The position numbers and the translations under genes were made by a program. The notes below the pieces were generated by a model. That model saw only the letters and a program-made list of their open reading frames with translations, did no database searches and had not been told where the DNA came from. DNA of 63,996 nt, counting the filler, from an uncultured Methanosarcinales archaeon (GTDB taxonomy: Archaea; Nanobdellota; Nanobdellia; Woesearchaeales; CAYXTQ01): the NCBI GenBank assembly GCA_964608065.1. It is 6 parts of 6 records of this genome, joined end to end, with 100 filler letters (N's around TTAATTAATTAA, not from the genome) between each part and the next. Parts side by side here need not be neighbours in the genome. Positions count along the whole stretch, not along the records: positions 1 to 12,382 come from CAZSMA010000042.1; 5 more parts are not named here. The stretch is one strand, 5' to 3'. Shown one piece after another: positions 1 to 22,869 of the stretch. How positions within the stretch are numbered: position 1 is the stretch's first letter; every line of letters begins with the position of its first letter.

Positions 1-31
1 AAAATAAAAAATAAAAAAAAAAAATTATGGT

Positions 32-88
32 TTACAAACCTGCTTCCTTCTTTAGTACTTCAGCTTTATCTGTAATCTCCCAGATAAA
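32..88 (-). pseudogene. Relic second copy of the metK 3' end
   Basis: Minus strand reads [18 protein letters not shown], versus [18 protein letters not shown] at the end of metK (2257); many third-position differences. Confidence 0.85.
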
Positions 89-179
89 GTAGAGATAAGC
101 AGAAATTTCTCTCGTCGATTGATTATGAATTTTGAGTGTTTATATAGTTTTTGGAGTGAAAGTCCGACAGGGCAGAGTT

Positions 180-713
180 TTACTTGTTCAAAACTATATC
201 TCTTGTTGCATCTATTAGTTTTCTGCAGTCTTCTATCATTCCTTTTATCTTGTCTTTATTTGTGACAGAAATTTCTGTACCATAAGTATACTCTTCCCTC
301 ATTTCTATGATTTTCTTATCTTCTTCAGAATCAATATCTGCGTATTTCAACATGTTTATGAATCTATCTTCGATATCTATTTTTCCTTCCTCCTTGAGAT
401 ATTCCATGAGAGCAATAGTGCAAGATTGATTTCTGCTCTCGTAGCCGAATTTTGTAGCTATAGCTAACATACAATGATACATACTGTAGAAAACCATGCT
501 AATACTTACATCTTCAAAGTTACCCTTTAGAAGATAGATTATTGCATTTAGGTTGTGCTCTGCTTTATTAAGATGCTTCATTGCTTTTTTTGTATTAGGA
601 CTTGATTTTAGTAAACCTCTATGTTGGATTCTTAATCCTTGTTTCTTACAATCTTCAACTTCTTTTTTAGCCTTATTTAAACACCACTTTATCATATTAG
701 AAGCCTGTGACAT
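180..713 (-). CDS. HEPN domain protein (toxin-like partner of the upstream nucleotidyltransferase)
   Basis: HLNKAEHNL...FYSMYH...GYESRNQ...MREEYTYG pattern; overlaps the end of the MNT gene. Confidence 0.8.
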   Translation of the reverse strand: MSQASNMIKWCLNKAKKEVEDCKKQGLRIQHRGLLKSSPNTKKAMKHLNKAEHNLNAIIYLLKGNFEDVSISMVFYSMYHCMLAIATKFGYESRNQSCTIALMEYLKEEGKIDIEDRFINMLKYADIDSEEDKKIIEMREEYTYGTEISVTNKDKIKGMIEDCRKLIDATRDIVLNK

Positions 714-1287
714 TTCTAATCACCTCAACATAATCTTGATGCCCATACAAAATAATGCCTGTCTTAATAATATCTACGAATTCTTCTCCTTTCTGTTGCA
801 AATTTTTTTGTAAATCCACTTTAGTAAGTTCTATTGAGTGAATGGGTCTAGGAAGTATCTGCTGCCTTTTGTCGATTACTTCTTTTACTTGTTTATACTC
901 TCCTTTCTTTATAACTACCATTATATCTATATCTTTAGCTTCCTTAGCATTCCTTATTATGGAACCAAAAAGTATTACAGTTCTGCCAGCCTTGAACAAC
1001 TCTTTAAATTCTTCTTTCCATCGTTTATAACTGCTGGCTTCATCAGCCAAAAGAAATGCAATAGTGCTTCTGGTATAATCATCTTCTAGGTTAGGTTTGT
1101 AAATAATTGATTTACCTATAGTTTTCGCAACTAATAAATTTTCTTCCTTTAACCTTTTAAGCATCTTTTGTGTTCCAACATGACTTATTTTTAATAGTTT
1201 ACTAAGAGAATTAGCATTATATAAAGTAGTATAATCTTTAAATATAATCAACAATGCTTCTCGTTCTTTTTGAGTCAAAGATACCAT
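697..1287 (-). CDS. wHTH-fused minimal nucleotidyltransferase (MNT antitoxin-like)
   Basis: N-terminal HTH; ILFGS...DIDIMV nucleotidyltransferase motif. Confidence 0.85.
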   Translation of the reverse strand: MVSLTQKEREALLIIFKDYTTLYNANSLSKLLKISHVGTQKMLKRLKEENLLVAKTIGKSIIYKPNLEDDYTRSTIAFLLADEASSYKRWKEEFKELFKAGRTVILFGSIIRNAKEAKDIDIMVVIKKGEYKQVKEVIDKRQQILPRPIHSIELTKVDLQKNLQQKGEEFVDIIKTGIILYGHQDYVEVIRNVTGF

Positions 1288-1327
1288 AGTAACCTCGAGT
1301 TACTATATAGTAACTTAGAGTTACTAT
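1286..1327. promoter_or_regulatory. Two tandem 21-bp palindromes; probable autoregulatory operator of the MNT-HEPN operon
   Basis: ATAGTAACCTCGAGTTACTAT followed by ATAGTAACTTAGAGTTACTAT, between the TATA box (1325-1332, minus strand) and the start codon. Confidence 0.75.
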
Positions 1328-1386
1328 ATAAATGTTTCGTTTATTTTCTTAAAGAAGCTTCAAATTCATCAATATCTTTTCTCTCT

Positions 1387-1881
1387 CTATTTCTTCGGTA
1401 GATGTTTTAAAATTTCATTTGTTACTTCCATCATATTTTTACCAGAGGTATCAATCTCAATCCCTACTTTTAATCTAGATACCAATTTATAAACGTCTTC
1501 TATTGCTTTTTTTGTCATTGGTTTCTTTCTTGTTTTATTTCGTACAAGACAATCTTTAAGCAATGCTTTAAGCGAGAAAATATAATGTTTAAATGGAAGA
1601 TTTCTCTCAAGATGTTGGAGTTGTCCTTTCCTATAAAAACAACCATCAAATATAACAATTTTATTACTTTTCAATTTTTCTATAGCTTTAGAAATAATTA
1701 ACTTATTAGCTTTTACAAAGTTTTCTGTAGGGATGCCATCCCGAACAATAATATCCAGTTTATTCTTTCTCATTATTTCATCAAAAGAAAAATGGTAACT
1801 ATTAAGAACTTCTGCTAATTTTCTTGCAATTGTTGATTTTCCAATACCTGCTGGACCCCTAATTATAATGAAATAGCTCAT
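1387..1881 (-). CDS. P-loop kinase (AAA_33/nucleotide kinase-like)
   Basis: IIIRGPAGIGKST Walker A, IVIFDG; start taken at MSYF. Confidence 0.8.
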   Translation of the reverse strand: MSYFIIIRGPAGIGKSTIARKLAEVLNSYHFSFDEIMRKNKLDIIVRDGIPTENFVKANKLIISKAIEKLKSNKIVIFDGCFYRKGQLQHLERNLPFKHYIFSLKALLKDCLVRNKTRKKPMTKKAIEDVYKLVSRLKVGIEIDTSGKNMMEVTNEILKHLPKK

Positions 1882-2024
1882 TAATAAGTTAAAAGATTTG
1901 TTAATTATATAAGTTTTCCTAAAAAATAAAAAAAAGTGTAGAATCAACTTATTAATAAGAAAAAGAAAAACAATTTTTCTTTTTAAATATTTTAGATGAA
2001 CAATGTGGTAACAATTTCACCAAA

Positions 2025-2096
2025 TGTCAAAAACTGTCCATCATAGATGGTGGCATGTTATTACATGCACAATGATATTGAATGGTTTTTGAGCAT
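2025..2096 (-). repeat. Partial copy of dispersed ~150-bp element (family A)
   Basis: TGTCAAAAAC..CCATCATAGATGG..GGTTTTTGAGCA, similar to the 24443-24595 copy. Confidence 0.6.
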
Positions 2097-2256
2097 GTTC
2101 GGAAATATACCTCCTTACAATAAGGTATGGTGGATTTCATCCACTGGTTAGAAACCAGTAGTATATTTCCGACATATCCAAGAGAAATATCGTCTACAAA
2201 CGCTACTTAACAAAAAAAAAAAAAATAAAAAAAACGGATTTACGCCGACAATGGAC

Positions 2257-3452
2257 TTAAAGTCCAGCTTCCTTTTTCAGCACTTCTGCCTTGTCAACTT
2301 TTTCCCATGTGAAGTCAGGGTCATCTCTTCCAAAATGTCCATAGGATGCTGTTTTTCTGTAAATAGGTCTTCTAAGTTTTAAGTGATCAATAATCTGCTT
2401 TGGCTTTAATGGAAAGTTTTTTCTTACAAGCTCAGAGATTTTTTCTTCTGGAATCTTGTTTGTTCCAAAACAATCCACATTTATTGAAGTTGGCTCTGCA
2501 ACTCCAATGCAATAAGACAATTGTACTTCGCATTTTTCTGCTAATTCTGCTGCTACAATATTCTTTGCTACATACCTTGCTGCATATGCACCAGAACGAT
2601 CTACTTTGCTTGGATCTTTTCCAGAAAATGCCCCACCACCATGTCTTCCAACACCACCATAGGTATCAACAATTATTTTTCTTCCTGTAACTCCTGTGTC
2701 TCCTTCAGGCCCTCCAATAACAAAAGCACCTGTTGCATTAATATGAATCTTTGTGTCTTCATCAATCCATTCTTTGCAAACTGGCTTGATTACATGTTCT
2801 AATATTTTTTCTCGCAGCTCTTCCTCTGATATATCTTTTTTATGCTGCTGAGCAATAACCACTGCTGTAACTTTTTTAGGTTTGTCATCTTCATACTGAA
2901 CACTAACTTGGCTTTTTCCATCAGGACCAAGATGAGGGATTATCCCTTCTTTTCTGACATATGCTAATCTTTGGGTAAGTTTATGAGCTAAGGTTATTGG
3001 TAATGGCATCAATTCCTTTGTTTCATTACATGCATAGCCATACATCATTCCTTGATCTCCTGCTCCTTGCTCTTTATCTTCTCCTTTTCCTTCTGTAACT
3101 CCTTGACTTATATCAGGAGATTGCTCATGGATTGCAACCCATACACCGCAATCTTCACAATCAATACCGAATCTTGGATTTGTATATCCAATATCCCTAA
3201 GAGTTTCTCTTACAACTTTCTGAACATCAACATAACCATTTGTTGTCACTTCTCCTGCTACATGAACGCTTCCTGTTGTAGTTAAACACTCAACAGCAAC
3301 CCTTGAATAAGGATCCTGCTTGAATAATTCATCCAATATAGCGTCGCTTATTTGGTCACACACTCAAGATACCCAATAGAAAAAAACTATTGAGTTTTAT
3401 CTGGATGACCTTCTGTAACGCTTTCAGATGTTACATATGTTATTTTTCCCAT
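2257..3452 (-). CDS. metK: S-adenosylmethionine synthetase, bacterial/eukaryotic type; two exons (3452-3397 and 3364-2257), 387 aa after joining
   Basis: Exon 1 [18 protein letters not shown](K) with upstream GGAGG; exon 2 VCDQISD...GAGDQG...[16 protein letters not shown]. Confidence 0.95.
3365..3396 (-). other. Predicted 32-nt bulge-helix-bulge (BHB) intron in metK mRNA
   Basis: Central helix AGAU/AUCU, 3-nt bulges AAA and UGA, 9-bp inner stem; canonical cut sites rejoin CCA GAT AA|A GTG TGT. Confidence 0.85.
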
Positions 3453-3519
3453 ATTATATCCCTCCATTATTAGATTTTAAATAAATTTCAACATCTTTGT
3501 TTAAAAACCTTTCTGAAAG

Positions 3520-3541
3520 AAATATTCCTATAGGAATATTT
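3520..3541. promoter_or_regulatory. Perfect 22-bp palindrome between divergent metK and HTH-CBS genes; probable operator
   Basis: AAATATTCCTATAGGAATATTT. Confidence 0.65.
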
Positions 3542-3593
3542 TTGTTATTTATTTTAGTAAAGAATAAATATAAGTTGTATTTTTGTTGTAATT

Positions 3594-4139
3594 ATGCCAT
3601 ATGAAATAACTGAGATAAAGCTGATAAGAAAGAAAGTTGGTTTAACACAGAATGAACTAGCCAAACAATCAGGAGTAAGCCAGAGCTTAATAGCTAAGAT
3701 TGAATCTGGAAGATTAGATCCAACTTATTCTAAAGCAAGAAAAATAATGGAAACATTGAATTCATTGACTAAAAAGCAGGAGTTGAAAGCAATAGATATA
3801 ATGAATAAGAAAATTATTTTTATAGAATCAAGTGAAGATATAAATGAAGTGATAAAAAAGTTAAAAAAATATGAAATTTCGCAGTTTCCTGTGTTAGAAA
3901 ACAATAAATGTATTGGCTTAGTCTCAGAGTCTATTTTATTAGATGCAATAATAAATAAAAAAGGAAAGAAAGTTAGGGATATAATGGAAGAAGCTCCTCC
4001 TACTATATCTAAGGATGCTGGTGTTGATATAATCTCTAATCTGTTGAAATTCTATCCTATCATATTAGTAGCTTCAAGCGGTAAATACAAAGGGATAATC
4101 ACTAAATCAGATATGTTACTGAAGATTTATAAGAAATAA
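3594..4139 (+). CDS. XRE-HTH plus CBS-pair transcriptional regulator
   Basis: GLTQNELAKQSGVSQSLIAKIESG HTH; ISQFPV...GIITKSD CBS pair. Confidence 0.9.
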   Translation: MPYEITEIKLIRKKVGLTQNELAKQSGVSQSLIAKIESGRLDPTYSKARKIMETLNSLTKKQELKAIDIMNKKIIFIESSEDINEVIKKLKKYEISQFPVLENNKCIGLVSESILLDAIINKKGKKVRDIMEEAPPTISKDAGVDIISNLLKFYPIILVASSGKYKGIITKSDMLLKIYKK

Positions 4140-4142
4140 AAA

Positions 4143-4760
4143 TTACTCTATCTTCAAAATCTTAGTCAAAGTCTTAATCTCATTACCATCAGAATCTTCA
4201 AAAACAAACTTCAGACTTTGATCTAATTCAAAGTTGTATAAGTTCAAACCTGAAATATCAAAGAAGGTTTTAGTTTTGTGGTCTCCTGCACCTATTGCAG
4301 GGAATTCTAAGGTTGTCCTAGGGTTTCCGTTGTACTCTTCACTTGTCTTAGAGTTTGAATGATAGATCTTGACTTTCATCTGTAAATTAGAATCCAGGCC
4401 ATTATAGATAATAAAGCTTAAGGAGCTAATAACTGCTTTTTTATAAACTGCGCTTTCTTTTATAGTGTAGCTTATAGGAACTGCAATAGTTATATCAACA
4501 TTTCCGCTAAGGTCTTTTTTGGCAGTTGTTTCTGTTTTAGTTTCAGGCTCTGTTTTTATAACTTCTTCAACTTTTGTTTTTTCTTTTTCCTCAACTTCAG
4601 ATAAACCAATTACATCTCCTGTGATATTGTCTGTTTCGCCTCCTGAACATTGAGAATATTTATAAGAATAATAAATTGTAGTTGACATAAAAATAAGGAT
4701 TATAACCATAAATACTATCCTTTCAAGCTTCCTTGGTGTTAACTCAATTTCTATTGCCAT
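4143..4760 (-). CDS. Hypothetical single-pass membrane protein
   Basis: N-terminal TM helix, charged linker, beta-rich C-terminus. Confidence 0.6.
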   Translation of the reverse strand: MAIEIELTPRKLERIVFMVIILIFMSTTIYYSYKYSQCSGGETDNITGDVIGLSEVEEKEKTKVEEVIKTEPETKTETTAKKDLSGNVDITIAVPISYTIKESAVYKKAVISSLSFIIYNGLDSNLQMKVKIYHSNSKTSEEYNGNPRTTLEFPAIGAGDHKTKTFFDISGLNLYNFELDQSLKFVFEDSDGNEIKTLTKILKIE

Positions 4761-4851
4761 AATCCAATAAATTGATAATCTCATATTTAAGCTTTTTGGT
4801 AGGGGCTATAAAACAAAAAATTTAAATAACTCACACTATTAAATTTAATTA

Positions 4852-6012
4852 ATGGCATTTATAAAATTCAAGCTTGAGAAAGATAAGGAAGAAAGAGCTA
4901 TTAAAACCTTAAAATTAGGTGGAAAAGGGAAAACCGGAGAAACACCTAAAATAAAAGCAAAAAGAAAAGTAAAGACAAGTACTGGTAAAAAAGGTTTTAT
5001 ACTTGATTGGGAATCTGAACTTGGTTATTCTGCTAATCCTTTTGAGACTAAAATATTGGCTCCAATAAGCAGTTATATTGCAGGATATTCAAAAGAGAAG
5101 AATGGCATCAATCTTTTTGTAATAAACAATGAAAAATTTGGTATAATCACAGGAGAGTATGGTGTTGGCAAGACAACCTTGTTGAAATGGTTGCATGAGC
5201 AGTTGCAGAAATATAAGGAAAGGGTTATGGTCTATTATTTCAATGGTAAGGTTCTTTTTCAGGAATTTATTTTAGTAAAAAGTCTGGTAAATCCTCTTTT
5301 AAGCTTATATGAGAAAAAAATTAAAAAATTGAATAAAGATGTTAATATAGAGAGGAATCTCTCTTTGTTAAAGAAAAAGATTGGCAATAAAAAATTAGTT
5401 CTTTTGATAGATGATGTAGAATCTGTACCTTCCAGTGTATTGTTATTGCTGAAGAAGATGTATAGTGTGATGCCTTTGGAAATAATCATGGTCTGCAACA
5501 GCCATGCAGCTCAGAAGTTAAGGGAAATAGACTGGTTAAAAGACAGATTAAAAATGAAATTAAAAGGATTAGCTGTTCCAGAAGCAACAGTTATGATAAG
5601 AAAAAGAATTACTGCTTTTGGAGGAGAAGATATTTTTCCTTTTGATGACAGCTATGTACATAAAATTTGCAAGCAAGCCTCTTATAATCCTAAACAGATA
5701 CTGGATTTATGCCAGCATTATGCTATTGAGTTAGCTGTGAAACAGGTTAAAAGAAAAATCCAAAATAAAGCTGAAGTAGTTAAGGAAGAAGTAAAAGAAG
5801 AGAAAAGTGTTAAAGAAGAAGTTAAAGACGAAGAACAAAATTCTGAAGTTCCTGTCCTAAAAGAGATTCCTAAGAGAAAAGAATATCATATAAAGGTTAT
5901 AAATCAGGGTTCAGAAGCTATTTCTATGGATGACTTGAAGAAAGATGAGAAAGGAAATTATAATAAAAAAATTTCTAAAAAAAAAAAAAAAAAAAAAAAA
6001 CTTTTAAAGTAA
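4852..6012 (+). CDS. ExeA-like AAA ATPase
   Basis: NPF motif, ITGEYGVGKTT Walker A, LLIDD Walker B; 3' end uncertain because of a poly-A run. Confidence 0.75.
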   Translation: MAFIKFKLEKDKEERAIKTLKLGGKGKTGETPKIKAKRKVKTSTGKKGFILDWESELGYSANPFETKILAPISSYIAGYSKEKNGINLFVINNEKFGIITGEYGVGKTTLLKWLHEQLQKYKERVMVYYFNGKVLFQEFILVKSLVNPLLSLYEKKIKKLNKDVNIERNLSLLKKKIGNKKLVLLIDDVESVPSSVLLLLKKMYSVMPLEIIMVCNSHAAQKLREIDWLKDRLKMKLKGLAVPEATVMIRKRITAFGGEDIFPFDDSYVHKICKQASYNPKQILDLCQHYAIELAVKQVKRKIQNKAEVVKEEVKEEKSVKEEVKDEEQNSEVPVLKEIPKRKEYHIKVINQGSEAISMDDLKKDEKGNYNKKISKKKKKKKKLLK

Positions 6013-6460
6013 CCTTTTTATTTTTTATTAAGTAACTTCTTCATTCTCTGTGAATGTAAAATCTTATTCAAAACTTTTAAAAATTGTTTACTGTGTTCTA
6101 ATGGTATGGTGATAGAATGTTCATGAACCCATTCGTTTTCAACTTTTTTTTTTTTTGTATTAATAGATATCTTCCAAACTCATTCTCTAAAATATCAAAC
6201 CATATTGTTCTGTTATTATAATCCAGTTTTTCAAAATCAAAATGTTGTATTCTATGGTTAGGATAATAAACTTTTGTAACACCAAATTTTTTCATATAAA
6301 TTTCATTCTCAAGAATTAATATTTGTAAATGTTTCTCAATAGCTTTTCTGGAGAACTTTGTTCCACGAACTATCTGCGTCATAGTTAAACCCTTAGGATT
6401 ATTTCTAAGAAATTCAATAATTTTGTTGTGTAGTATTTTTTCTTTTTTTGCTGGATACAT
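6004..6460 (-). CDS. wHTH DNA-binding protein with apparent homopolymer frameshift near 6150
   Basis: GLTMTQIVRGTKFSRKAIEKHL HTH; reading continues in another frame as VENEWVHEHSITIP...LL*. Confidence 0.65.
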
Positions 6461-6669
6461 TTTATACTTACTATTAAGAACCGAAACATTTATATATTTA
6501 TTGTTCTTTATATTGGTTACCAACCATAGTTACAATAAAATAGTCATGAAATATTTTTTTTAAAAAAAAAAAAAAAAAAAGTGGCCGAGAAAGGCCAAGT
6601 TAGCATCTCACCCGGATAATAGATGAAATACAATAGAAGTATATAAAATTTTTGATAAAGGTGATGGAA

Positions 6670-7686
6670 ATGAAAAAAGAAACAAAAGCAAATGCTATTA
6701 AGTCAAATTATAAAATTTTGATCAACAATATTGGCAAAATACTAGAAAAAGGACGAAAACAAGTGGTTATAGCTGTAAATAATATTCTCGTTAACACTTA
6801 TTGGGAAATAGGGAGACAGATTGTTGAATTTGAGCAGAAAGGGAAAGAAAAAGTGGAGTATGGTAGTAAACTATTTGAAAGAATAGCTAAGGACCTAAAA
6901 GACAGATATGGGAAGGGATTTAGCAGGAGTAATATTATCTACATGAGGTTATTATATCTGAAATATCCAAAAAGTCAGACACTGTCTGACCAATTGGGTT
7001 GGAGCCATTATATTGAGCTCGTTAGCATAGATGATGACCTAGAAAGATCCTTTTATGAGAAGCAGTGCATAAAGGAAAATTGGTCAGTTAGGGAATTAAG
7101 AAGACAAATCAACTCTGCTTTATTCTACAGAATAGCTTTAAGTAAGGATAAAAAAGGTGTCTTGGAGTTATCCAAAAAAGGTCAAATTATAGAAAAAGCA
7201 AAAGACTTGATAAAAGAGCCGTATATTCTAGAGTTTCTCAACATTCCCCAGCATTATAGCTATTCTGAAAAAGAATTAGAACAAAAGATAATAGATAACT
7301 TACAAATGTTTCTTCTGGAATTAGGAAAAGGATTTACTTTTGTAGCAAGACAATTTAGAATAAGCTTCGGTAATAAAAATTTTTATGTTGATTTAGTATT
7401 TTATCACATGATATTGAAATGTTTTGTACTTATTGATCTAAAAATAGGTGAAGTTAATCATCATGATATTGGCCAGATGAATCTTTACTTAAATTATTTC
7501 AAAGCAGAAGAAAATTCAGATGAAGATAATAAACCTATTGGTTTGATATTATCTGCAAAGAAAAATAACATCCAAGTAAAATATGCTCTTGGTGGAATAT
7601 CTAACAAATTGTTTGTTTCCAAATATAAATTATATCTTCCTGATAAAAAACAACTAGAAGAAAAGATAAGGAGGTTACTTGAATAA
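6670..7686 (+). CDS. DUF1016/YhcG-family PD-(D/E)XK nuclease-domain protein
   Basis: YWEIGRQI, YGKGFS, WSHY, FLLELGKGF, VDLVFYH, IDLK, GQMNLY. Confidence 0.92.
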   Translation: MKKETKANAIKSNYKILINNIGKILEKGRKQVVIAVNNILVNTYWEIGRQIVEFEQKGKEKVEYGSKLFERIAKDLKDRYGKGFSRSNIIYMRLLYLKYPKSQTLSDQLGWSHYIELVSIDDDLERSFYEKQCIKENWSVRELRRQINSALFYRIALSKDKKGVLELSKKGQIIEKAKDLIKEPYILEFLNIPQHYSYSEKELEQKIIDNLQMFLLELGKGFTFVARQFRISFGNKNFYVDLVFYHMILKCFVLIDLKIGEVNHHDIGQMNLYLNYFKAEENSDEDNKPIGLILSAKKNNIQVKYALGGISNKLFVSKYKLYLPDKKQLEEKIRRLLE

Positions 7687-7703
7687 GTATATTTTATGTT
7701 AGA

Positions 7704-7916
7704 ATGCAAATAACCTTTCAAAACATAGGATGGAAAAGCAAGGTCACACAGAAAAGATCTACTTTAAGTATTTCTATCAACAAGTTAGTTGCAGTTGGAT
7801 GTTCTTTAGAGAAAGGTCAGACATTATATTCTTATTTAGCAGAAGACGAGCAGAAACGACCCATAATGATTACCTACTTAGACAGCAAAAAGAAAGGACA
7901 TATAGTGATTTTGTAG
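7704..7916 (+). CDS. Small hypothetical protein, AbrB-like
   Basis: SKVTQKRSTLSISINK...LEKGQ pattern. Confidence 0.5.
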   Translation: MQITFQNIGWKSKVTQKRSTLSISINKLVAVGCSLEKGQTLYSYLAEDEQKRPIMITYLDSKKKGHIVIL

Positions 7917-8009
7917 GTTGAGGGAATGTTTTTACACCCACAAAAACATATGTTATAGTTATTTAAGTAAGTTGTTTTACCAAATAGCAGTTTAAAAGAG
8001 GGTGATAGT

Positions 8010-8468
8010 ATGAGATTAGGTGAAGCATTAAGTAAACTAAAGAAAGAGAAAAGTAGATTAGCACGATTGATTTTGTTGAGAAAAGAAAACATCTATGTAG
8101 AAGAAGGTAAAAAAACAAAATTTAATCCAAAGAAATTATCTGAAGAAATAGATAAGAGAATCGAAGATATTAGAAAGCTAAAGATTAAGATACAAAAAAC
8201 TAATTTAAATACGACAGTTAATGGAGATAATGTAATCTTAGCTGAAGCTATAGTTAAAGTTAATGATTTACGAAGCAATCTAGCTCATTTAAGTAGTTTG
8301 TTTGAGAAAAAAGAGCGTTATTTATTTAGAGATAAGGATGAAAAGGAAATGGTAACTCAACTTGATGAACTTGAAATAGAGGATAAAATAGAAAAATTAG
8401 AGATTGAAAAAGTTCAGCTTGATAATAAAATACAGATGACTAATTGGACAACTAAATTAGTTGATTAA
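8010..8468 (+). CDS. DIP1984-family coiled-coil protein
   Basis: MRLGEAL...IQKTNLNT...LAEAI...LDNKIQMTNWTT; GGTGA SD. Confidence 0.85.
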   Translation: MRLGEALSKLKKEKSRLARLILLRKENIYVEEGKKTKFNPKKLSEEIDKRIEDIRKLKIKIQKTNLNTTVNGDNVILAEAIVKVNDLRSNLAHLSSLFEKKERYLFRDKDEKEMVTQLDELEIEDKIEKLEIEKVQLDNKIQMTNWTTKLVD

Positions 8469-8492
8469 GCTTATCTATCCTTGATAGGTAAG

Positions 8493-8699
8493 ATTGCTGA
8501 CAGTTTTGTAGGTAAGCGCAGGCGTGTAGTGGTTTGTCTTATACAAATCTTATGATTTGGATGGGGTAAATGCTGCACACCACCAAGATGGATAATGATG
8601 GGATGTGATGCCTTAAAGATAAAAGATTAAAGATCATTGCTTAAGGATTAAAGCTTAAAGCTCATATGCCTGTGTTTTTCTTTCTTAGCTGTTGGCAAT
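8493..8699 (+). ncRNA. Putative structured ncRNA with an internal heptamer array, downstream of the DIP1984-like gene
   Basis: 13-bp and 14-bp nested long-range stems rich in G-U pairs; seven in-register 7-mers at 8614-8662. Confidence 0.6.
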
Positions 8700-8834
8700 T
8701 TATTATCTATTGGTTGAATTTCAAATGGTGGAATCAAAAATAAAAATGGACACACATCCATAGACCAGCTCTATTTGAGCACACTAATCAAGGGCAAGGC
8801 AGTCTTCGGTTAGTAGGTCTGGAGTGTGTCCAGA

Positions 8835-9035
8835 ATGAGGAAGAAATTACTAGAGTGCAGTATACATGGCCTAACATTATTTAGGTGTAAGAGAAGATGT
8901 TGGAAAAGAGGAGGCAAAAAAGAGAAATCTTATTCTGATGAATATATAGAGGAATGTTTTAAATGTATGAGTGAAGGAATACATAAAAAAGGTGTTGAAC
9001 CTATGCAAAAAAAGAAGAGACATGTTAAAATATAA
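8835..9035 (+). CDS. Small Zn-finger-like hypothetical protein
   Basis: CSIHG...CFKC motif. Confidence 0.5.
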   Translation: MRKKLLECSIHGLTLFRCKRRCWKRGGKKEKSYSDEYIEECFKCMSEGIHKKGVEPMQKKKRHVKI

Positions 9036-9062
9036 TAAGAGAGATAGAGAGAGAAAAAAAAA

Positions 9063-9824
9063 TTACTTCAAACCCCTCAACCTCCTAAAATCATAGACCT
9101 TGTCTGCTACAATATAAACATTAAAATTGTCTAAGTTTTGCTGTAAGAATGGGCTTAGTGTTTTTTCCATCAAAAATCCTTCGGATTTTTGGGGTTCCGA
9201 AAATCTTTGATTTTCGAGAACTTTTGTTATGTCTGTTCCTTCTGTTACTAAATTAAAAGAAGGCTGTACAATTAATGTTTTTCTTTTGAACTTTCCTTTT
9301 AGAAAGCATTTGTATTTTTCGATTCTAGGGCTGTCTTTTAGAGTTATGGCAGGGTGTTCGTGGCCAATAATTATTATTTTACTCTTTTTTATTAATTTTT
9401 CAATGTCTTTGTTTAGTTTATCACCATGAATTACTAGAATATCTTTCAAAATAACATAATCCTTGACTTCAACATTTCTTTTCTTAGCTATTGGACCTAA
9501 AATATTGTCATGGTTGCCTTTTATCAAAATTACTTTTCCGTATTTTGCTAAGAAATCCAATAATTTTAGAGTGTGCCTCCATTCCTGCTCAGAAATTCTG
9601 CCAAACTCATGCTTTATGTCTCCATTGATGATTATGTTATTTACTTTTACTTGTTCTAATATTTTTTCTAGTCTTTTAATGATTTCAGTAAACTGGAACC
9701 TTGGAATTAAAATACCTTGTTTATTCAAGGATTCTTCAAAGCCAATATGTATATCACATATTATCAGGGTTTTATCTATCAACAATCCTAAATCTATGAT
9801 TTTGATGTTGTTGTGAATGTTCAT
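9063..9824 (-). CDS. Metallophosphoesterase (Lhr-associated MPE-like) with an 18-aa in-frame insertion
   Basis: DIHIG, NGDIKH, GNHD, HG, GHEHP motifs; directly downstream of lhr. Confidence 0.9.
   Translation of the reverse strand: MNIHNNIKIIDLGLLIDKTLIICDIHIGFEESLNKQGILIPRFQFTEIIKRLEKILEQVKVNNIIINGDIKHEFGRISEQEWRHTLKLLDFLAKYGKVILIKGNHDNILGPIAKKRNVEVKDYVILKDILVIHGDKLNKDIEKLIKKSKIIIIGHEHPAITLKDSPRIEKYKCFLKGKFKRKTLIVQPSFNLVTEGTDITKVLENQRFSEPQKSEGFLMEKTLSPFLQQNLDNFNVYIVADKVYDFRRLRGLK
9168..9221. repeat. Twin-hairpin element (family B) inserted in frame in the CDS
   Basis: CAAAAATCC-TTC-GGATTTTTG plus GTTCCGAAAATC-TTT-GATTTTCGAGAAC. Confidence 0.75.
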
Positions 9825-12382
9825 TTTTTCTTTCCAATCTTAGCTAATATATTATTGTGCATCTTTCTTATGAACTCTATTTTATCTTCTATCTTCATTA
9901 TGTCAACATAACCTTGTGTTATTAGGTTAAATGCAAATGGGGATGGTAAAGGTGTAGTTATTTTTTTTATTCTTATTTCTTTTTTTTCAATTTTTTCCAT
10001 TATTTTAATTGCATTATCTATATCCATCAGATCTTCAAGAACCTCTCTTCTTGCTTCTTTTAATATTACAAAATCAGGATCAATCCTTTTGACAGCACTC
10101 ATCAATATCATAGAAGAAACCTGCTGTCTTCCAACTCTTTTTCTTCTTCCTTTATAGTTTCTTAAAATCATTAAACTTCTTGTAGCACAATGCCTGAATC
10201 TTCTTTTCAAAACTTCTGTTTTTTCTATTGCCCTTTCACATACTGCTCTTAATTCTTTTGATTTTAGCAAATTCAATGCATTTAATGGATTTATTTTTTT
10301 TGGAGAGGTTATATAAAAACCATTATCATTTATTCCGATCTCAACATTAATATGCTGAGTTCTAGCTATCGCAAAAGCTAAAGCTCTTGACAAACAATCA
10401 TTGACTCTTCTTCCAAATAATATATGGAATAAATAATAAGTCTGCTTTCCATCATTATAGATTTCTACAACTATTTTTTTGTCAGAAGGAATCTGTGAAA
10501 AATTGAATTGTTCGTAGAAATATTCATACAATGCTTCTGCTCCGTTTTTGTCGATGTATAAATATTTATTAAGAAAATCTATGATTTCTTCTTTACTTTT
10601 TCTTTTTGTGAATAAATCATCCATATATCTTCTGAATCTGCCTATGTTCATACCTAAATCAAAGCTTAGTGGCAGCATTTCTGAATACCATGATGGAACA
10701 GTTGGTGGTCTATTTGCAGAAGCATTAACCTGAGCAACCATTCCTCTGCTGAACTTGAACTGATAAACCTGTCCTCCTAAGACAAAAATGTCACCAGGTC
10801 TAAGTCTTTCTAAGAAAGCTTCATCAATTGTTCCGACAGTTTGCTCTCCAACTTTAACTCTTACAGAGGTTTCATCTGGAATAGTTCCTATATTTGTCAT
10901 GTAGATAACTCTACCCATTCTTCCTTTTCTTCCTATCATTCCATTGTCTTTATCATGCCATATCTTAGCATAAATATGCCTGTCTTCCAAGCTTACATAT
11001 TTTCCTGAGAGATAATCAATTACATCCATAAAATCCTTTCTTGTTAGGTCTTTGTAGCAATAGCTTTGTTTTACTAATTTGAAAAGATCATCAATATGTA
11101 TGTTTTCTTCCAAAGCAATACCATCTATTTGTTGTGATAAAACATCTAAGCAGTTAGTTGGAATATGTATTTTGTCTATTTTTCTTTCTATTGCAGATTT
11201 TAACAAGCAGGCACATTCAACTAAGTCATCTCTTCCTAAAACAATAAGCCTTCCTTTAGTTGTGTCATGCAATTTGTGGCCTGATCTTCCAGTTCTTTGC
11301 AATGCTCTTGCTACAGATTTAGGGCTGCTTAATAAGATGACTAAATCAATATAACCAATGTCAATTCCTAATTCTAAACTTGTTGAACATACAACAACTT
11401 TTAGTTTTCCTTCTCTTAATCTGTTTTCAATATTTAATCTGTGTTTTTTAGATAAAGAACCATGGTGAGCACCGATGTTCTCTGTGTAGTTTTTTGGAAA
11501 CTTTTCCTTTAAGTGATGTACAACCCTTTCAGTTGCAGCCCTTGTATTAGTGAATATCAGAGTTGTCTTATGGTCTTGTATTAATTTATCAAGTAAAATA
11601 TACATGCTATTATGCATGTTTTCATGTGTTGTGTTAATTAGATCAGGCAATGGACTTAATACTTTCAGATCCAGTTCTTTAATAAACTGGACATCAACAA
11701 TTTTACAGTTTCTTATTTTATCGTTTTCATAACCTACTAGGTATTTTGCAATTTCTTCTAATGGAGCGACTGTTGCGCTTAATCCAACTCTTGTCAGATG
11801 AGGACTTAGTCTTGATAATCTTTCCATACTTAGATTTAAGTGAACTCCACGTTTGTTTTCAGCTAAAGCATGGACTTCATCTATAATGCACCATTCAACA
11901 TTTCTTAATAATTCTTTAAATTTTATAGAAGACAATACAATAGCTAATGATTCTGGAGTTGTTATTAAGATATGTGGAGGTTTTTTAAGCATTTTTTGCT
12001 TTTCAGAAGGAGTTGTATCTCCTGTTCTTACTGCTACCCTTATGTTTAGTTTTTTACCTGCTATATCTTCCATTTCTTTTAGAGGTTCTTTTAGGTTTTT
12101 TTCAATATCATTGTTCAATGCTTTTAATGGAGATATGTATATGCAGTATACTTTATCCTCTAGAATTCCTTTTTCACTTGAATCAATTAATTCGTTTAAT
12201 ATAGATAAAAAGCCTGTTAATGTTTTTGTTGCTCCTGTTGGAGCTGAAACAAGGATGTTAGACCTTGAATGAATTTCCATGACACCGTATAATTGCGGTA
12301 AAGAAAAAGTCTTAAATCTACTAAAAAACCATTTCTTTACTAATGGATTCAGTATATGTTTAACCTGTTCTTCATTGTAAGG
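9821..12382 (-). CDS. lhr: Lhr-family ATP-dependent helicase, 5' end cut by contig edge
   Basis: SPLKALNND, TTPESL, DEVH, SAT, HHGSLS, STSLELGIDIG, QRTGRSGH; frame open to the contig end. Confidence 0.93.
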   Translation of the reverse strand, partial: PYNEEQVKHILNPLVKKWFFSRFKTFSLPQLYGVMEIHSRSNILVSAPTGATKTLTGFLSILNELIDSSEKGILEDKVYCIYISPLKALNNDIEKNLKEPLKEMEDIAGKKLNIRVAVRTGDTTPSEKQKMLKKPPHILITTPESLAIVLSSIKFKELLRNVEWCIIDEVHALAENKRGVHLNLSMERLSRLSPHLTRVGLSATVAPLEEIAKYLVGYENDKIRNCKIVDVQFIKELDLKVLSPLPDLINTTHENMHNSMYILLDKLIQDHKTTLIFTNTRAATERVVHHLKEKFPKNYTENIGAHHGSLSKKHRLNIENRLREGKLKVVVCSTSLELGIDIGYIDLVILLSSPKSVARALQRTGRSGHKLHDTTKGRLIVLGRDDLVECACLLKSAIERKIDKIHIPTNCLDVLSQQIDGIALEENIHIDDLFKLVKQSYCYKDLTRKDFMDVIDYLSGKYVSLEDRHIYAKIWHDKDNGMIGRKGRMGRVIYMTNIGTIPDETSVRVKVGEQTVGTIDEAFLERLRPGDIFVLGGQVYQFKFSRGMVAQVNASANRPPTVPSWYSEMLPLSFDLGMNIGRFRRYMDDLFTKRKSKEEIIDFLNKYLYIDKNGAEALYEYFYEQFNFSQIPSDKKIVVEIYNDGKQTYYLFHILFGRRVNDCLSRALAFAIARTQHINVEIGINDNGFYITSPKKINPLNALNLLKSKELRAVCERAIEKTEVLKRRFRHCATRSLMILRNYKGRRKRVGRQQVSSMILMSAVKRIDPDFVILKEARREVLEDLMDIDNAIKIMEKIEKKEIRIKKITTPLPSPFAFNLITQGYVDIMKIEDKIEFIRKMHNNILAKIGKKK

Positions 12383-12482
12383 NNNNNNNNNNNNNNNNNN
12401 NNNNNNNNNNNNNNNNNNNNNNNNNNTTAATTAATTAANNNNNNNNNNNNNNNNNNNNNNNNNNNNNNNNNNNNNNNNNNNN
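12383..12482. other. Artificial contig linker
   Basis: N44-TTAATTAATTAA-N44, identical at five sites. Confidence 0.98.
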
Positions 12483-13474
12483 GGAAGATCCATTGAAACA
12501 TGGATTTTATCAATATCAATCTCAGCTCCAAAACCACCAGATTCACACAATTCAGAGCTAGCACACATTATACCACCAGCACCCATATCTTTAAATCCTA
12601 ATTTTATTCCTTTCTTCCTTGCTTCTTTGAAAACCGCTTCTGTTGACCTGATTAACATATTTTTTAAAAAAGGATCTGGAACTTGCACAGCACCTTTATT
12701 ATATTCCTCTTCTTGTTCATCTAAAACTAAACTAGCAAAAGCAGCTCCTCCAAACCCTGAGTTATCAGTTGCTTTTCCAACAATAACAATATCATAGCCT
12801 TCTGCATCCTCAGGAGCAGCCGAATGAATTATATCATCTTCTTTAATTAATCCTAAACAAGCAACATTTACTAAACAATTATCATCAAAACTATTATTAA
12901 AATAAACATCTCCTGCAATATTAGGAACTCCTAAAGGATTAGAATAACCTGCAATACCATCAACAACAGCATTTGCAACATATTTAACATAATTTTTATT
13001 TTTTCCATTTGGATCTCCAAATCTTAAAGGATCTGCTGTTGATATTACTCTTGCTCCCATACATAAAACATCTCTGACTATCCCTCCAATTCCAGTTGCA
13101 GCACCTTCATAAGGAACAACCTGAGATGGATGATTATGGCTTTCATGGGCTATAACAATTCCATACTGCTCTCCATCTACTTTTGCAAATTTTATAATTC
13201 CAGCATCTTCTTTTGGGCCTTGTATCACAGTTGGGCCTTCAGTCGGAAGTAATTTTAGGATTTCCCTGCTTGATTTATAGCTGCAGTGCTCACTCCATTC
13301 AATATTGAACATATGAATTTCAGTTAGGGTTGGATCTCTTCCAATTAATTTAACAATTTCTTTGCACTCTGAAACATTTAAAGCAAGATAATTCTTCTTA
13401 ATAAACTTCTGAATCTCAGCATCAGACATATTAGAAATAAGTACTGTTTCTATATCTACTTTATTTTCCCCCAT
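12483..13474 (-). CDS. purL: Phosphoribosylformylglycinamidine synthase subunit PurL, 3' truncated
   Basis: WSEHCSYKSS, ESHNHPS, GAATGIGGIVRD, VQVPDPF, DMGAGG. Confidence 0.95.
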
Positions 13475-20648: not shown

Positions 20649-20993
20649 ATGTACAATCCAACAATAATCAATGAAAAAGATGCTGAAAAAACAATGAATG
20701 AAATAGGAGTAGGTGGTGGAATTCCATATATGCTTCCAAAAACAAAATTCAGGTTAATCAAATTACATAATGTAAGGAATGCTATTGCTAATATTCTAAA
20801 GCAGGAAATCCTTTCTTTAGGTGGAGACGCAGCAGTAAACAAAGGAACAGTCAACTGCACTGTTGAGAAAACAGATGTTTTGTTGATGGGAACTATAAAA
20901 CAGCTTAAAGAATTAATAAAAAAAATGAAGATTCAAGTTAGTGAATCAAAAGATATTGCTGTTGAAATAGAAAACATTATAAATAAGATATAA
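20649..20993 (+). CDS. Stand-alone protein resembling the N-terminal extension of some dihydropteroate synthases
   Basis: ANILKQEILSLGGDAAV...DVLLMGT; no TIM-barrel catalytic domain follows. Confidence 0.65.
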   Translation: MYNPTIINEKDAEKTMNEIGVGGGIPYMLPKTKFRLIKLHNVRNAIANILKQEILSLGGDAAVNKGTVNCTVEKTDVLLMGTIKQLKELIKKMKIQVSESKDIAVEIENIINKI

Positions 20994-21008
20994 TTAAAAT
21001 CATTCTTA

Positions 21009-21644
21009 ATGGCATGGTCAATAAAAACAAAAACAGATGTCCTTATAGGGTTATTTGTTGCAGCTTTGATTGCAGCTAATCTATTAGGAGGCAAAATAGC
21101 CCATGTCTGGATTGATTTTTCAGTTGGAATCTTTGCTTATCCTGTAACATTCTTAATAACAGATGTTATAGAAGAAGTCCATGGAAAAAGAAAAGCTCAA
21201 AACTTAGTATATGCTGGATTTATATCCTTAATGTTTGTTCTAGGACTTACATTTTTAGCAATAAAATTACCAAGTGCAACTAGAGATTTTTTTCCAGTTG
21301 AATATACAAAGGTGTTTGGCATTAGCCTAAGGATTATGATTGCAAGCGCTGTTGCATTCCTTTTATCCCAGACTCACGATGTTTGGGCTTTTAATTTTTG
21401 GAAAGAAAAAACAAAAGGAAGGTTCTTGTGGTTAAGGAATAATTTAAGTACTATAGTCAGCCAGCTTATAGACAGCACAATATTCATGTTCATAGCATTC
21501 TATGGAATGACTCCAAAACATAATATTGCTTATATGTTTGTTTTAATTATACCTTATTGGCTTCTAAAAGTAGTTGTAGCATTATTTGACACACCATTGA
21601 TTTATTTGGGTGTTTGGTGGTTAAAGAAAGGAGAAAAAGGTTAA
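21009..21644 (+). CDS. VUT/YhhQ-family (queuosine precursor) transporter
   Basis: YPVTFLITDVIEEVHG, SQTHDV, LWLRNNLST..SQLIDS, DTP. Confidence 0.9.
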   Translation: MAWSIKTKTDVLIGLFVAALIAANLLGGKIAHVWIDFSVGIFAYPVTFLITDVIEEVHGKRKAQNLVYAGFISLMFVLGLTFLAIKLPSATRDFFPVEYTKVFGISLRIMIASAVAFLLSQTHDVWAFNFWKEKTKGRFLWLRNNLSTIVSQLIDSTIFMFIAFYGMTPKHNIAYMFVLIIPYWLLKVVVALFDTPLIYLGVWWLKKGEKG

Positions 21645-21720
21645 GTAGAAAATTTTAACTACTATAAAGTATTGATAATGATAAGGTTTATATACTTCTC
21701 TGAAACCGCAATTTACCAAT

Positions 21721-22869
21721 ATGAATGTAATTAAAGCTATCGATGAATTGTGTGATTCAAAAGGAGACTATAATGATGTTCCTTTTGAACACTTGGATTT
21801 CCCAAACAAAGAGATTATTGCAACTAGGATTATAGCAGAAATTCAAAGTAAATTTAATCAGAAACTTAGTCACACTAGTGCAGAGCCTTATATTGCTGAA
21901 GATATATATTCTAAATTAAAGCAAAGAATAAATCAAATTGATTCGTCTTTTAACAAATATTTTGGAAGTCCTGATTTAAAAAAAAAAAAAGGTGTTGAGG
22001 CAATAGTCAAGTATGCTTTAAGTATGGCTCAGCCAGTTGGAATATTATTTCTTAAAGAGGGTAAGGCAAGGGATATACTGATTGAACATCCTCCTTTAAA
22101 GTTAATGGAACATTTAAGATATAAAACAATAAATGAACTATTTGATAATGAGGATATTTATGAAATGTATTGTGTTTTGAGAACAAGTGAGAAAAAAGAG
22201 TGGTTCAATAAATTTTTGGAGTTAATGCAATATGTAGGAGTCAATGATTTTGAACAAAGAGATATAAATATTAAGATATTGAATCCAGATAAATATCCAA
22301 GTTTAATTCCAATTTTACAGAAAAAACAACCATTATGGGATGAGAGAGTTATGGGTTGTGTATTTGGGATTCCTTTTTCTAAACTAGATGGTTGCCCTGT
22401 TCCAACGATAAGAACATTAACTAGGGCATATCATTATTTTACAGAATTAAGTTATCATTCAAAATTTATTGACATTGTTTCTGAAGCAAGTTTTGGAGAT
22501 AGATTAAAGACTGTATTGAATGGGCAATATCAAAAACATAATTTCTTTGAACCTCATGCGTTACTAGAAAATCTGTATTGGTCAAAGACTTGTGAGTTCT
22601 TATTCAAAGATCAAAATAATATTTCAGAGCTAGACTTTTGGATGGATGGATTAGATGTTGGTGGTTTTTTAAAATCAAAAGGTGATATGCAAATTATAAT
22701 TAGTTTTAATATATTAGATTCAATTACTAATACTTCAAAAAGAAAGGAATTTCCGGGAAATACAAGAATGTTGGCAGGAGTTATTAAAAGAAAAGTATTT
22801 GATCAATACTTTGGTGACACTGAAATAAAATTATTGGAAAATATGGATAGAGGTTATATAGAGTTATAA
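21721..22869 (+). CDS. Hypothetical protein
   Basis: 382-aa ORF with upstream TATA-like box; no recognised motif. Confidence 0.6.
   Translation: MNVIKAIDELCDSKGDYNDVPFEHLDFPNKEIIATRIIAEIQSKFNQKLSHTSAEPYIAEDIYSKLKQRINQIDSSFNKYFGSPDLKKKKGVEAIVKYALSMAQPVGILFLKEGKARDILIEHPPLKLMEHLRYKTINELFDNEDIYEMYCVLRTSEKKEWFNKFLELMQYVGVNDFEQRDINIKILNPDKYPSLIPILQKKQPLWDERVMGCVFGIPFSKLDGCPVPTIRTLTRAYHYFTELSYHSKFIDIVSEASFGDRLKTVLNGQYQKHNFFEPHALLENLYWSKTCEFLFKDQNNISELDFWMDGLDVGGFLKSKGDMQIIISFNILDSITNTSKRKEFPGNTRMLAGVIKRKVFDQYFGDTEIKLLENMDRGYIEL

Follow-up and report, generated by a model that had tools for sequence, protein, structure and literature searches.

Archaeal pre-tRNA and pre-rRNA introns are excised at a motif known as the bulge-helix-bulge (BHB), where cuts fall after the second base of each bulge, a rule derived from the 37/38 position of tRNA introns. 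Archaeal rRNA introns encode LAGLIDADG enzymes. In messenger RNA the BHB motif had been found only in cbf5 until HVO_1309 was added (PMC7714728), and the archaeal cases described comprise one coding sequence (cbf5) and one leader (HVO_1309), as far as the accounts in PMC7714728 and PMC10485636 extend. The cbf5 intron is depicted as having been gained and lost among relatives (in the part of PMC2738675 that deals with its distribution). No publication on BHB introns of DPANN protein genes, or on BHB introns paired with free-standing endonucleases, came up in our literature searches. In this study, we analyzed a 32-nt insert in metK, the S-adenosylmethionine (SAM) synthetase gene of an uncultured archaeon (assembly GCA_964608065.1, here genome G000). 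The window, i.e. the whole stretch of DNA that was analyzed (63,996 nt), carries metK in its first part (positions 1-12382, contig G000:C42), and only this part is contiguous with the gene. From position 12383 on, the window consists of contigs chained by runs of N (the first run at 12383-12426).

Inspection of the minus strand revealed that metK (ATG at 3452-3450) begins with 19 codons ending at the motif GHPDK, followed by 32 extra bases and then by the sequence encoding VCDQISD. The insert contains an in-frame TAG (UAG in the RNA) and its length (2 mod 3) shifts the reading frame, which agrees with an earlier description made from the DNA sequence of the window (the original prediction). 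It may be placed at 3395-3364 or, by canonical cuts, at 3396-3365; since both flanking bases are A, the two placements lead to the same product. On the 3′ side of the insert there is an open reading frame (ORF) of 368 aa (3363-2257), and the two parts together (19 + 368) encode 387 aa, the length of MetK of the closest uninterrupted relative. As stated earlier, the rest of the gene is intact: no other lesion was found within the 387 codons. It is very likely that the 32 bases constitute a genuine BHB intron in the coding sequence of the sole SAM synthetase gene of this genome, which would be removed by the splicing endonuclease EndA and the ligase RtcB.

The product of the 368-aa ORF matched the Pfam families S-AdoMet_synt_N (profile positions 17-99 only), S-AdoMet_synt_M and S-AdoMet_synt_C. 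This truncated ORF lacks N-domain positions 1-16, which include GHPDK, and a plain ORF call reports metK as a GTG-started fragment of 368 aa devoid of this motif, the kind of mis-annotation that had been anticipated. The S-AdoMet_synt families match bacterial control genomes and none of the four archaeal controls, while the reverse is true for PF01941, the archaeal methionine adenosyltransferase (MAT) family; on this basis metK is of the bacterial type, as had been proposed. A Shine-Dalgarno (SD)-like GGAGG sequence located 8 nt upstream of the ATG argues that translation begins with exon 1 rather than with the GTG that opens the 368-aa ORF.

A BHB scanner placed the motif exactly at the site noted earlier and recovered the same geometry, i.e. 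a 4-bp central helix, two 3-nt bulges and a 9-bp inner stem (Table 1). The features of the archaeal hBHBh′ motif could be recognized as follows: (i) the two 3-nt bulges lie on opposite strands with exactly 4 bp between them, a spacing that is identical in the two related genomes described below (G258 and G347), (ii) a helix is present on each outer side, of 9 bp on the inner side and with four of five positions paired on the outer side, and (iii) cuts after the second base of each bulge are predicted to give GHPDK/VCDQ, with a frame open through 387 codons and a junction identical to that in uninterrupted relatives. The predicted rejoining to P-D-K-V-C was thus reproduced. The exon-exon pairing that had also been proposed holds in the form of the outer helix, whereas the specific pairing GGUCAU/GUGACC is only an offset alternative to the register with the 3-nt 3′ bulge.

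Table 1. Positions in the window of the metK exons and of the predicted elements of the BHB motif
Feature	Position	Strand	Remarks
SD-like GGAGG before the metK start	3461..3465	-	Read directly; GGAGG-type motifs also 5′ of exon 1 in G258 and G347
metK exon 1	3397..3452	-	18 residues, then the Lys codon's first two bases; N-terminus agrees with that of G009 and other uninterrupted relatives
Outer helix, 5′ strand (exon 1)	3403..3407	-	Pairs with 3359-3363: C-G, C.U mismatch, U.G, A-U, C-G
Central 4-bp helix, 5′ strand, AGAU (exon 1 codons)	3399..3402	-	Four Watson-Crick pairs with 3370-3367
5′ bulge AAA	3396..3398	-	Predicted cut between 3397 and 3396, by the known rule
Predicted 32-nt BHB intron	3365..3396	-	Predicted removal gives GHPDK/VCDQ without a stop
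Inner stem, 5′ strand	3387..3395	-	Nine pairs with 3371-3379, including one G.U
Loop of seven U	3380..3386	-	Other sequence, 8 nt in G258 and 4 nt in G347
Inner stem, 3′ strand	3371..3379	-	Pairs with 3387-3395
Central 4-bp helix, 3′ strand, AUCU (intron)	3367..3370	-	GUCU in G258 and G347, still pairs (U.G)
3′ bulge UGA	3364..3366	-	Cleavage predicted between 3365 and 3364
Outer helix, 3′ strand (exon 2)	3359..3363	-	Pairs with 3403-3407
metK exon 2	2257..3364	-	Last base of the Lys codon, VCDQISD... to the stop; 368-aa open frame; Pfam domains

At the break in metK, this BHB is the sole combination of length and position which both restores the frame and gives a central helix paired at 4/4 positions. 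Among 200,000 shuffled inserts, any BHB in the frame-restoring register occurred in 0.9%, and one as strong as that of metK in 6. Genome-wide, matches with equally long stems numbered 414 in approximately 3.9e8 position-length pairs tested. The central helix is made of codons of a conserved protein motif, so the constraints on the protein and on the RNA overlap. The unconstrained minimum-energy fold (-19.2 kcal/mol, z = -3.6, with 0/200 shuffles as low) keeps the inner and outer stems and pairs the middle differently.

We infer cleavage, ligation and translation of the spliced metK mRNA in the following order. The pre-mRNA would fold so that AGAU of exon 1 pairs with AUCU at the 3′ end of the intron, leaving a 3-nt bulge on each strand. 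EndA would then cut after the second base of each bulge, and RtcB would join the exons (...GAU AA/A GUG...) to give GHPDK-VCDQ and the 387-aa enzyme. The intron would be released, probably as a circle.

The genome G000 (1.40 Mb, 131 contigs, 96.8% complete) was binned from a metagenome, is fragmented and probably contains some indel errors, and we therefore considered an assembly or sequencing artefact, in which the 32 bases would be foreign to the DNA of the organism. Against this, separately built contigs of X1 (2900-3488), X2 (3331-3520) and X3 (3042-3417; only 22 letters past the exon-1 junction), compared over 2900-3600, carry the insert with 0 differences. They come from three runs of two studies: X1 is perhaps the source sample of the assembly and X2 another sample of the same study, and X3, like X4, is from a different one. 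A contig of X4 (third study) ends 15 nt inside the insert and covers one junction. Moreover, a diverged copy occupies this position in two further species-level genomes. This makes an artefact the least credible explanation, and an extremely remote one. The metK-containing stretch is present in 7 DNA runs, all from groundwater, and X1 and X2 also contain an uninterrupted metK of a different organism, visible as a loose end at 3395. No further copies of the 32-nt insert were found in G000, so it is not a multi-copy repeat.

Bacterial-type metK is present in 46 of the 61 nearest genomes, the remaining 15 giving no metK match. All 29 metK loci fetched from relatives, including that of G001 (same genus), are uninterrupted at GHPDK/x-C-D, as are 74 of 80 metagenome metK loci, the other 6 of which start inside the gene at a contig end. 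In an order-wide sample of 401 genomes, 296 had metK matches at E <= 1e-40. This sample includes 8 genomes flagged as unpublished (G209, G315, G207, G121, G132, G205, G273 and G182), which enter the order-wide tallies only. Among the first 150 of the 309 match rows, which were examined, two short-frame rows, G258 and G347, have an insert at the metK codon boundary (33 nt with three in-frame stops, and 29 nt, respectively). An intron pattern built on the two arms, which would miss introns of other sequence, was found in 3/401 genomes (G000, G258 and G347), and its reversed control in 0.

The MetK proteins of the three carriers are 75-84% identical. In G258 and G347, both exon ORFs are intact and an SD sequence precedes exon 1. 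Alignment of the three introns revealed 17 pairs that hold in all of them (51/51 helix cells paired, compared with 29-61% when the partner was slid by 1 to 3 columns), including four outer-helix pairs kept in 3/3 genomes (12/12 cells). In three pairs a single side differs (G.U to G-C, or U.G to U-A), and one, the closing pair of the inner stem, changes on both sides (G-C, G.U and A-U in the three genomes). Every helix substitution across the three introns thus preserves pairing, and the loops (7, 8 and 4 nt) are of unrelated sequence. No archaeal MAT or any other MAT was found in G258 and G347, each of which has one EndA. These relatives therefore carry the insert, keep the BHB by compensating changes and have no other MAT, which is the opposite of the outcome (an insert lacking a conserved BHB, plus a second intact MAT gene) that had been named as speaking against an intron.

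In a maximum-likelihood tree of 32 MetK proteins, the three carriers fall in one clade of 8 rows (support 91/83), not together: G347 is sister to the intron-less G009 (99/95) and G258 to the intron-less G050 (100/99). This scatter requires at least three intron changes. The congener G001 lies outside the clade, and metK of G000 clusters with its counterparts from G009 and G347, both members of other families; this suggests that metK itself has moved within the order.

The gene appears to be needed. PF01941 gave 0 matches in G000, and the bacterial-type metK 1 match, the interrupted gene; no second intact MAT gene was found in this 96.8% complete genome, in line with what had been expected. The host encodes both the splicing endonuclease and the RtcB ligase. 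EndA is specified by one gene (contig C16; locus L001 1222-1788), whose 188-aa product has N and C domains (PF01974 and PF02778) and is of a size similar to that of alpha4 enzymes. Its best solved relatives are 3iey_A (the alpha subunit of Nanoarchaeum) and then 1a79 of M. jannaschii. In the alignment with 3iey_A the stretches FRVYD, H-x-(R/K)-WV and STRK were matched; the Tyr, His and Lys of these stretches, which we take to be the catalytic triad of EndA, are unchanged in G000. RtcB is encoded by one full-length gene (match to PF01139 at profile positions 1-426). In a protein atlas, the EndA clusters nearest to that of G000 are labelled Woesearchaeota or Nanobdellota, and from the taxa of these clusters we tentatively regard the lineage, as a lead only, as DPANN and Woesearchaeota-like.

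Analysis of G000 with aragorn identified just 19 tRNA genes, with introns reported in 11; one of the intron calls (1370 nt) is probably spurious. The strict BHB scanner matched none of the predicted tRNA introns, and the tRNA-Arg intron, checked by hand, has a mismatch in the central helix. Many tRNA genes of G000 are probably too disrupted for recognition.

The original prediction proposed a scan of the broken coding sequences of this genome for BHB motifs. ORFs from approximately 1.18 Mb of the relative G009 were compared with G000 by tblastn, the high-scoring segment pairs being chained across frames, and this homology screen revealed, besides metK, three breaks repairable by excision in the BHB register: in rnhB, kae1 and, as a weaker case, nrdD. 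The first is located in rnhB (RNase HII; G000:C2:21740-22428 (+), locus L174 541-1232), where a 38-nt insert (21775-21812; L174 576-613) splits GIDEAGR/GP and contains a stop. Its putative BHB has a central helix GGGG/CCCU, a 13-bp inner stem, and a 3′ bulge of 3 nt, which the minimum-energy fold widens to 4 nt. Inserts also split rnhB at this site in G001 (106 nt, AGGG/CCCU) and in G011, a member of another family (28 nt, CGGC/GCCG), with two central-helix pairs changed on both sides within this set; the other 27 rnhB loci fetched from relatives are uninterrupted.

The second break is located in kae1/tsaD (G000:C65, minus strand, locus L175), in which a 13-nt insert (1301-1289; exon 2 at 1288-345) forms a loop-type motif with a central helix CUGC/GCAG and an outer helix paired at 5/5 positions. 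Its removal gives GIESTA/HTFGVGI, and this was the single solution found. The gene is uninterrupted in 28/29 relatives, the remaining locus being ambiguous. In the third gene, nrdD (anaerobic ribonucleotide reductase; G000:C8:13294-13320 (+), locus L176 2795-2821), the frame is broken before the glycyl-radical region, between positions 521 and 527 of the Pfam NRDD profile. Excision of 13300-13319 (20 nt; central CCAT/ATGG, no inner stem) gives the zinc motif C-P-L-C (CxxC). A strict BHB at this site (C8:13296-13317, 22 nt) was rejected, as it gives the wrong frame; only the loop-type 20-nt motif restores it. The nrdD break, at which G258 and G347 are uninterrupted, may be a relaxed intron, an error or a pseudogene, and the case is weaker than those of rnhB and kae1. 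Together, the analogous inserts strengthen the view that mRNA splicing extends across this lineage.

In G009, a single frame of 821 aa (C1:42077-44518, minus strand) encodes NrdD together with a glutaredoxin-like domain fused to its C-terminus; in G000 (C8:13466-13741) NrdD and the glutaredoxin-like protein are encoded by separate genes with overlapping stop and start codons. In comparison with the G009 homologues, plain frameshifts (+-1 or small) were observed at C5 ~25830, C8:20203-20213, C6:26167-26185 and C1:12680-12695, and in C72 and C62. One of the frameshifts falls at a run of 13 A, and they may represent faults of the assembly or genes in decay.

Screening G009 in the reverse direction (707 homologue pairs) gave no convincing mRNA intron, the matches being N runs or low-complexity sequences. 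Two other approaches were abandoned. A genome-wide BHB scan combined with an ORF-fusion test gave 45,600 loose matches, 3,431 of which "fuse" ORFs; since shifted control junctions fused equal numbers (3,324-3,434), this route has no power and was replaced by the homology screen. A 17-letter degenerate pattern applied to the genome contigs had at least 120 chance matches, with none real among the matches listed.

Several observations weigh against an intron that is spliced from metK mRNA. The outer helix has a C.U mismatch beside its first pair, and the canonical BHB (-9.6 to -14.8 kcal/mol) lies 4-10 kcal/mol above the minimum-energy fold. In a shuffle control of the covariation, 343/500 reached the observed score, and three introns carry no statistical weight in this respect, so that the maintenance of the helices by compensating changes is seen in metK at n = 3 with an uninformative control. 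RNA runs containing the metK stretch numbered 0 among the sequencing runs searched. X1, if it is the assembly's own sample, provides no independent support for the insert, and several +-1 frameshifts in other G000 genes indicate that the assembly is not error-free or that some genes are decaying. Finally, a strict choice of substrates is ascribed to alpha4-type EndA in the portion of PMC5829648 concerned with specificity, which also ties broad specificity to loop insertions and places L3-bearing alpha4 enzymes in DPANN. With a strict alpha4-type EndA, the metK motif fits and the loop-type kae1 and nrdD cases are less sure.

The simple frameshifts in other genes speak for a rival reading in which the insert would have killed the gene, metK being a recent pseudogene and SAM being supplied by a host or partner, a dependence seen in many DPANN archaea. 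The 15/61 related genomes devoid of a metK match indicate that its loss is tolerated somewhere in the order, and the splicing of metK mRNA is a prediction. However, three genomes with MetK proteins of 75-84% identity have kept a homologous insert. A dead gene would keep neither the intact ORF halves with an SD sequence before exon 1, nor helix changes that preserve pairing next to a drifted loop. Breaks that can be repaired just as exactly occur in three further conserved genes, and the 387 codons hold no other lesion. We consider a pseudogene improbable.

Alternatively, the gene might work with the gap being handled otherwise, i.e. by translational bypassing, by a different nuclease and ligase, or by two polypeptides that assemble. 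A stop codon right after the break and a stable hairpin, both present here, are features of bypass elements of the phage T4 gene 60 type. The take-off codon would be AAA, but no AAA or AAG landing codon occurs at the 3′ end of the insert. Furthermore, the inserts in G258, G347 and the rnhB set vary between 28 and 106 nt and have in common only the BHB core and the register of the cut sites. A 19-aa fragment with GHPDK would be unlikely to complement in trans. With regard to other modes of splicing, an Rfam search of the window at the gathering threshold gave one tRNA only and no group I/II ribozyme core or other ribozyme family, and 32 nt are too short for a self-splicing intron. Such handling seems even less probable than a pseudogene, and excision of a BHB intron by EndA and RtcB is the explanation that we favor.

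We also inspected the neighborhood of the interrupted genes for homing endonucleases. In G258 and G347, an ORF encoding a protein with helix-turn-helix (HTH) and LAGLIDADG_3 domains (294 and 272 aa, respectively; 68% identity; the latter at L361 654-1472) is located directly upstream of the split metK, its end falling within exon 1 or shortly before it; farther out, the flanks differ between the two genomes. The metK locus of G000 contains no endonuclease gene, and no homologue of the enzyme of G258 and G347 was found in this genome at E <= 0.01; an endonuclease neighbor is therefore seen in the two relatives and not in the window. Traces of the gene also occur at intron-less loci: (i) G027 has a full endonuclease copy beside metK, with the site altered to K/MSD, (ii) one metagenome metK locus has a partial copy at its edge, with the site K/IAD, and (iii) G023 and G007 have remnants of 33-46 aa beside metK, with the site K/VAD. 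The idea that loss of the Cys codon beside the site lets intron-less endonuclease carriers escape was kept as a lead only: it fits 3/3 non-Cys loci among the 29 relatives, and 11/12 metagenome Ala variants have no endonuclease match within the 600-nt flank. Ala presumably occupies the Cys position in E. coli MetK and may be the usual bacterial residue.

A comparable ORF adjoins rnhB in G000. It encodes a 346-aa protein with LAGLIDADG_3 and winged-helix domains (L177 390-1430 (+), i.e. G000:C2 ~20703-21743) and ends overlapping the rnhB start codon, the same arrangement as that of the endonuclease genes upstream of metK in G258 and G347. A LAGLIDADG ORF lies approximately 0.75 kb upstream of rnhB in G001, and none was found at rnhB of G011. 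The total numbers of LAGLIDADG_3 matches are 15 in G000, 15 in G258, 18 in G347, 3 in G001 and 3 in G011. Some of those in G000 are inside very long frames (possible inteins). One LAGLIDADG_3 ORF (214-aa frame; G000:C5:18761-19021 (-)) adjoins the intron-containing tRNA-Glu gene (C5:18565-18671 (-)), and a 114-aa LAGLIDADG remnant (G000:C41:12319-12507 (-)) is located just upstream of the uninterrupted rtcB (C41:10827-12095 (-)).

It is less certain that the metK intron is the leftover of a mobile unit composed of a free-standing LAGLIDADG gene and a mini-intron, a unit that would be complete in two relatives. The pattern fits a homing cycle of invasion, endonuclease decay and intron loss, with this window at an "orphan intron" stage. 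There is about an even chance that a composite selfish element (LAGLIDADG gene plus BHB intron) spreads by gene conversion among Woesearchaeota-like archaea and has seeded metK, rnhB, kae1 and nrdD, the intron splitting the endonuclease's own target site in a highly conserved motif. Such an intron would cost the host nothing, because the host's tRNA-splicing enzymes remove it. Consistent with this proposal are the endonuclease gene upstream of metK in 2/3 carriers and upstream of the split rnhB of G000, the endonuclease remnants (G023 and G007) and full copy (G027) at intron-less metK loci, the patchy distribution of the metK intron on the tree, and the 15 LAGLIDADG_3 matches of G000. If it is true, Woesearchaeota-like lineages would routinely splice messenger RNAs.

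The other neighbors of metK in the window encode an HTH-CBS protein, a P-loop kinase-like protein, an MNT/HEPN pair and a 213-aa ORF of no known family. The HEPN-domain ORF (180-713) and the nucleotidyltransferase ORF (697-1287) overlap on the minus strand and look like a toxin-antitoxin pair of the MNT/HEPN type. A YhcG-type PDDEXK nuclease is encoded at 6652-7686 (+).

The metK insert is, on the evidence of its sequence, a putative addition to the few archaeal mRNA introns described, in a new lineage, in a sole-copy metabolic gene and with companions in the same genome. The conserved metK intron, together with the rnhB, kae1 and probably nrdD introns, suggests that some DPANN archaea may splice mRNAs as a regular step in the expression of their genes. 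For more than 20 years archaeal mRNA splicing by protein enzymes has rested on cbf5 and HVO_1309, to which metK would add a sole-copy gene of core metabolism. Gene callers give such genes as truncated or as pseudogenes, which biases metabolic reconstructions ("no SAM synthesis") and completeness estimates. The link with homing endonucleases would offer a testable route for tRNA-type introns into protein genes.

The position of an endonuclease gene upstream of the split metK in G258 and G347 may be likened to the collaborative homing of phage group I introns with free-standing endonucleases, in the form described in parts of PMC3984707 and PMC6083498. The location of the metK intron in the gene's most conserved motif and its patchiness on the gene tree add to this likeness. 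In contrast to the phage introns, that of metK would be an enzyme-dependent BHB of 29-33 nt, not a ribozyme; nothing of the endonuclease is present at the window locus, and its activity and target are predicted ones. With the BHB introns of archaeal pre-tRNA and pre-rRNA, the metK intron shares the motif, the cut rule and the enzymes, the host RNA being a messenger. From the splicing of HAC1/XBP1 mRNA by IRE1/RtcB in eukaryotes, the further details of which are general background, it differs in the endonuclease and the stem-loop, and in being a constitutive requirement and not a regulated stress response. The features in common are a protein enzyme, a change of frame and, in animals, ligation by RtcB, in the outline given within PMC13149111. 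The intron in the 5′ untranslated region of HVO_1309 of Haloferax volcanii (Schwarz 2020) is likewise an mRNA BHB, cut by EndA in vivo and in vitro according to the relevant section of PMC7714728; it lies in an untranslated leader, where no frame depends on it (PMC7714728), whereas the MetK protein would need exact excision.

The closest counterpart is the cbf5 intron of Crenarchaeota (Watanabe 2002; Yoshinari 2006; Yokobori 2009), also a short, patchily distributed coding-sequence BHB that is cut by the tRNA endonuclease, with ligation of the exons (as outlined in PMC2738675). The metK intron falls outside the cbf5 type as defined by cbf5 of Desulfurococcales/Sulfolobales and an (alpha-beta)2 EndA, yet would work alike. 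EndA of G000 is specified by a single gene for 188 aa, whereas cbf5 is linked to the (alpha-beta)2 form in the passages of PMC10485636 on this enzyme. The motif in metK, from which splicing is deduced, is canonical and that of cbf5 relaxed. Finally, the host gene is a different one, encoding a bacterial-type metabolic enzyme in another lineage, and several genes per genome appear to be affected.

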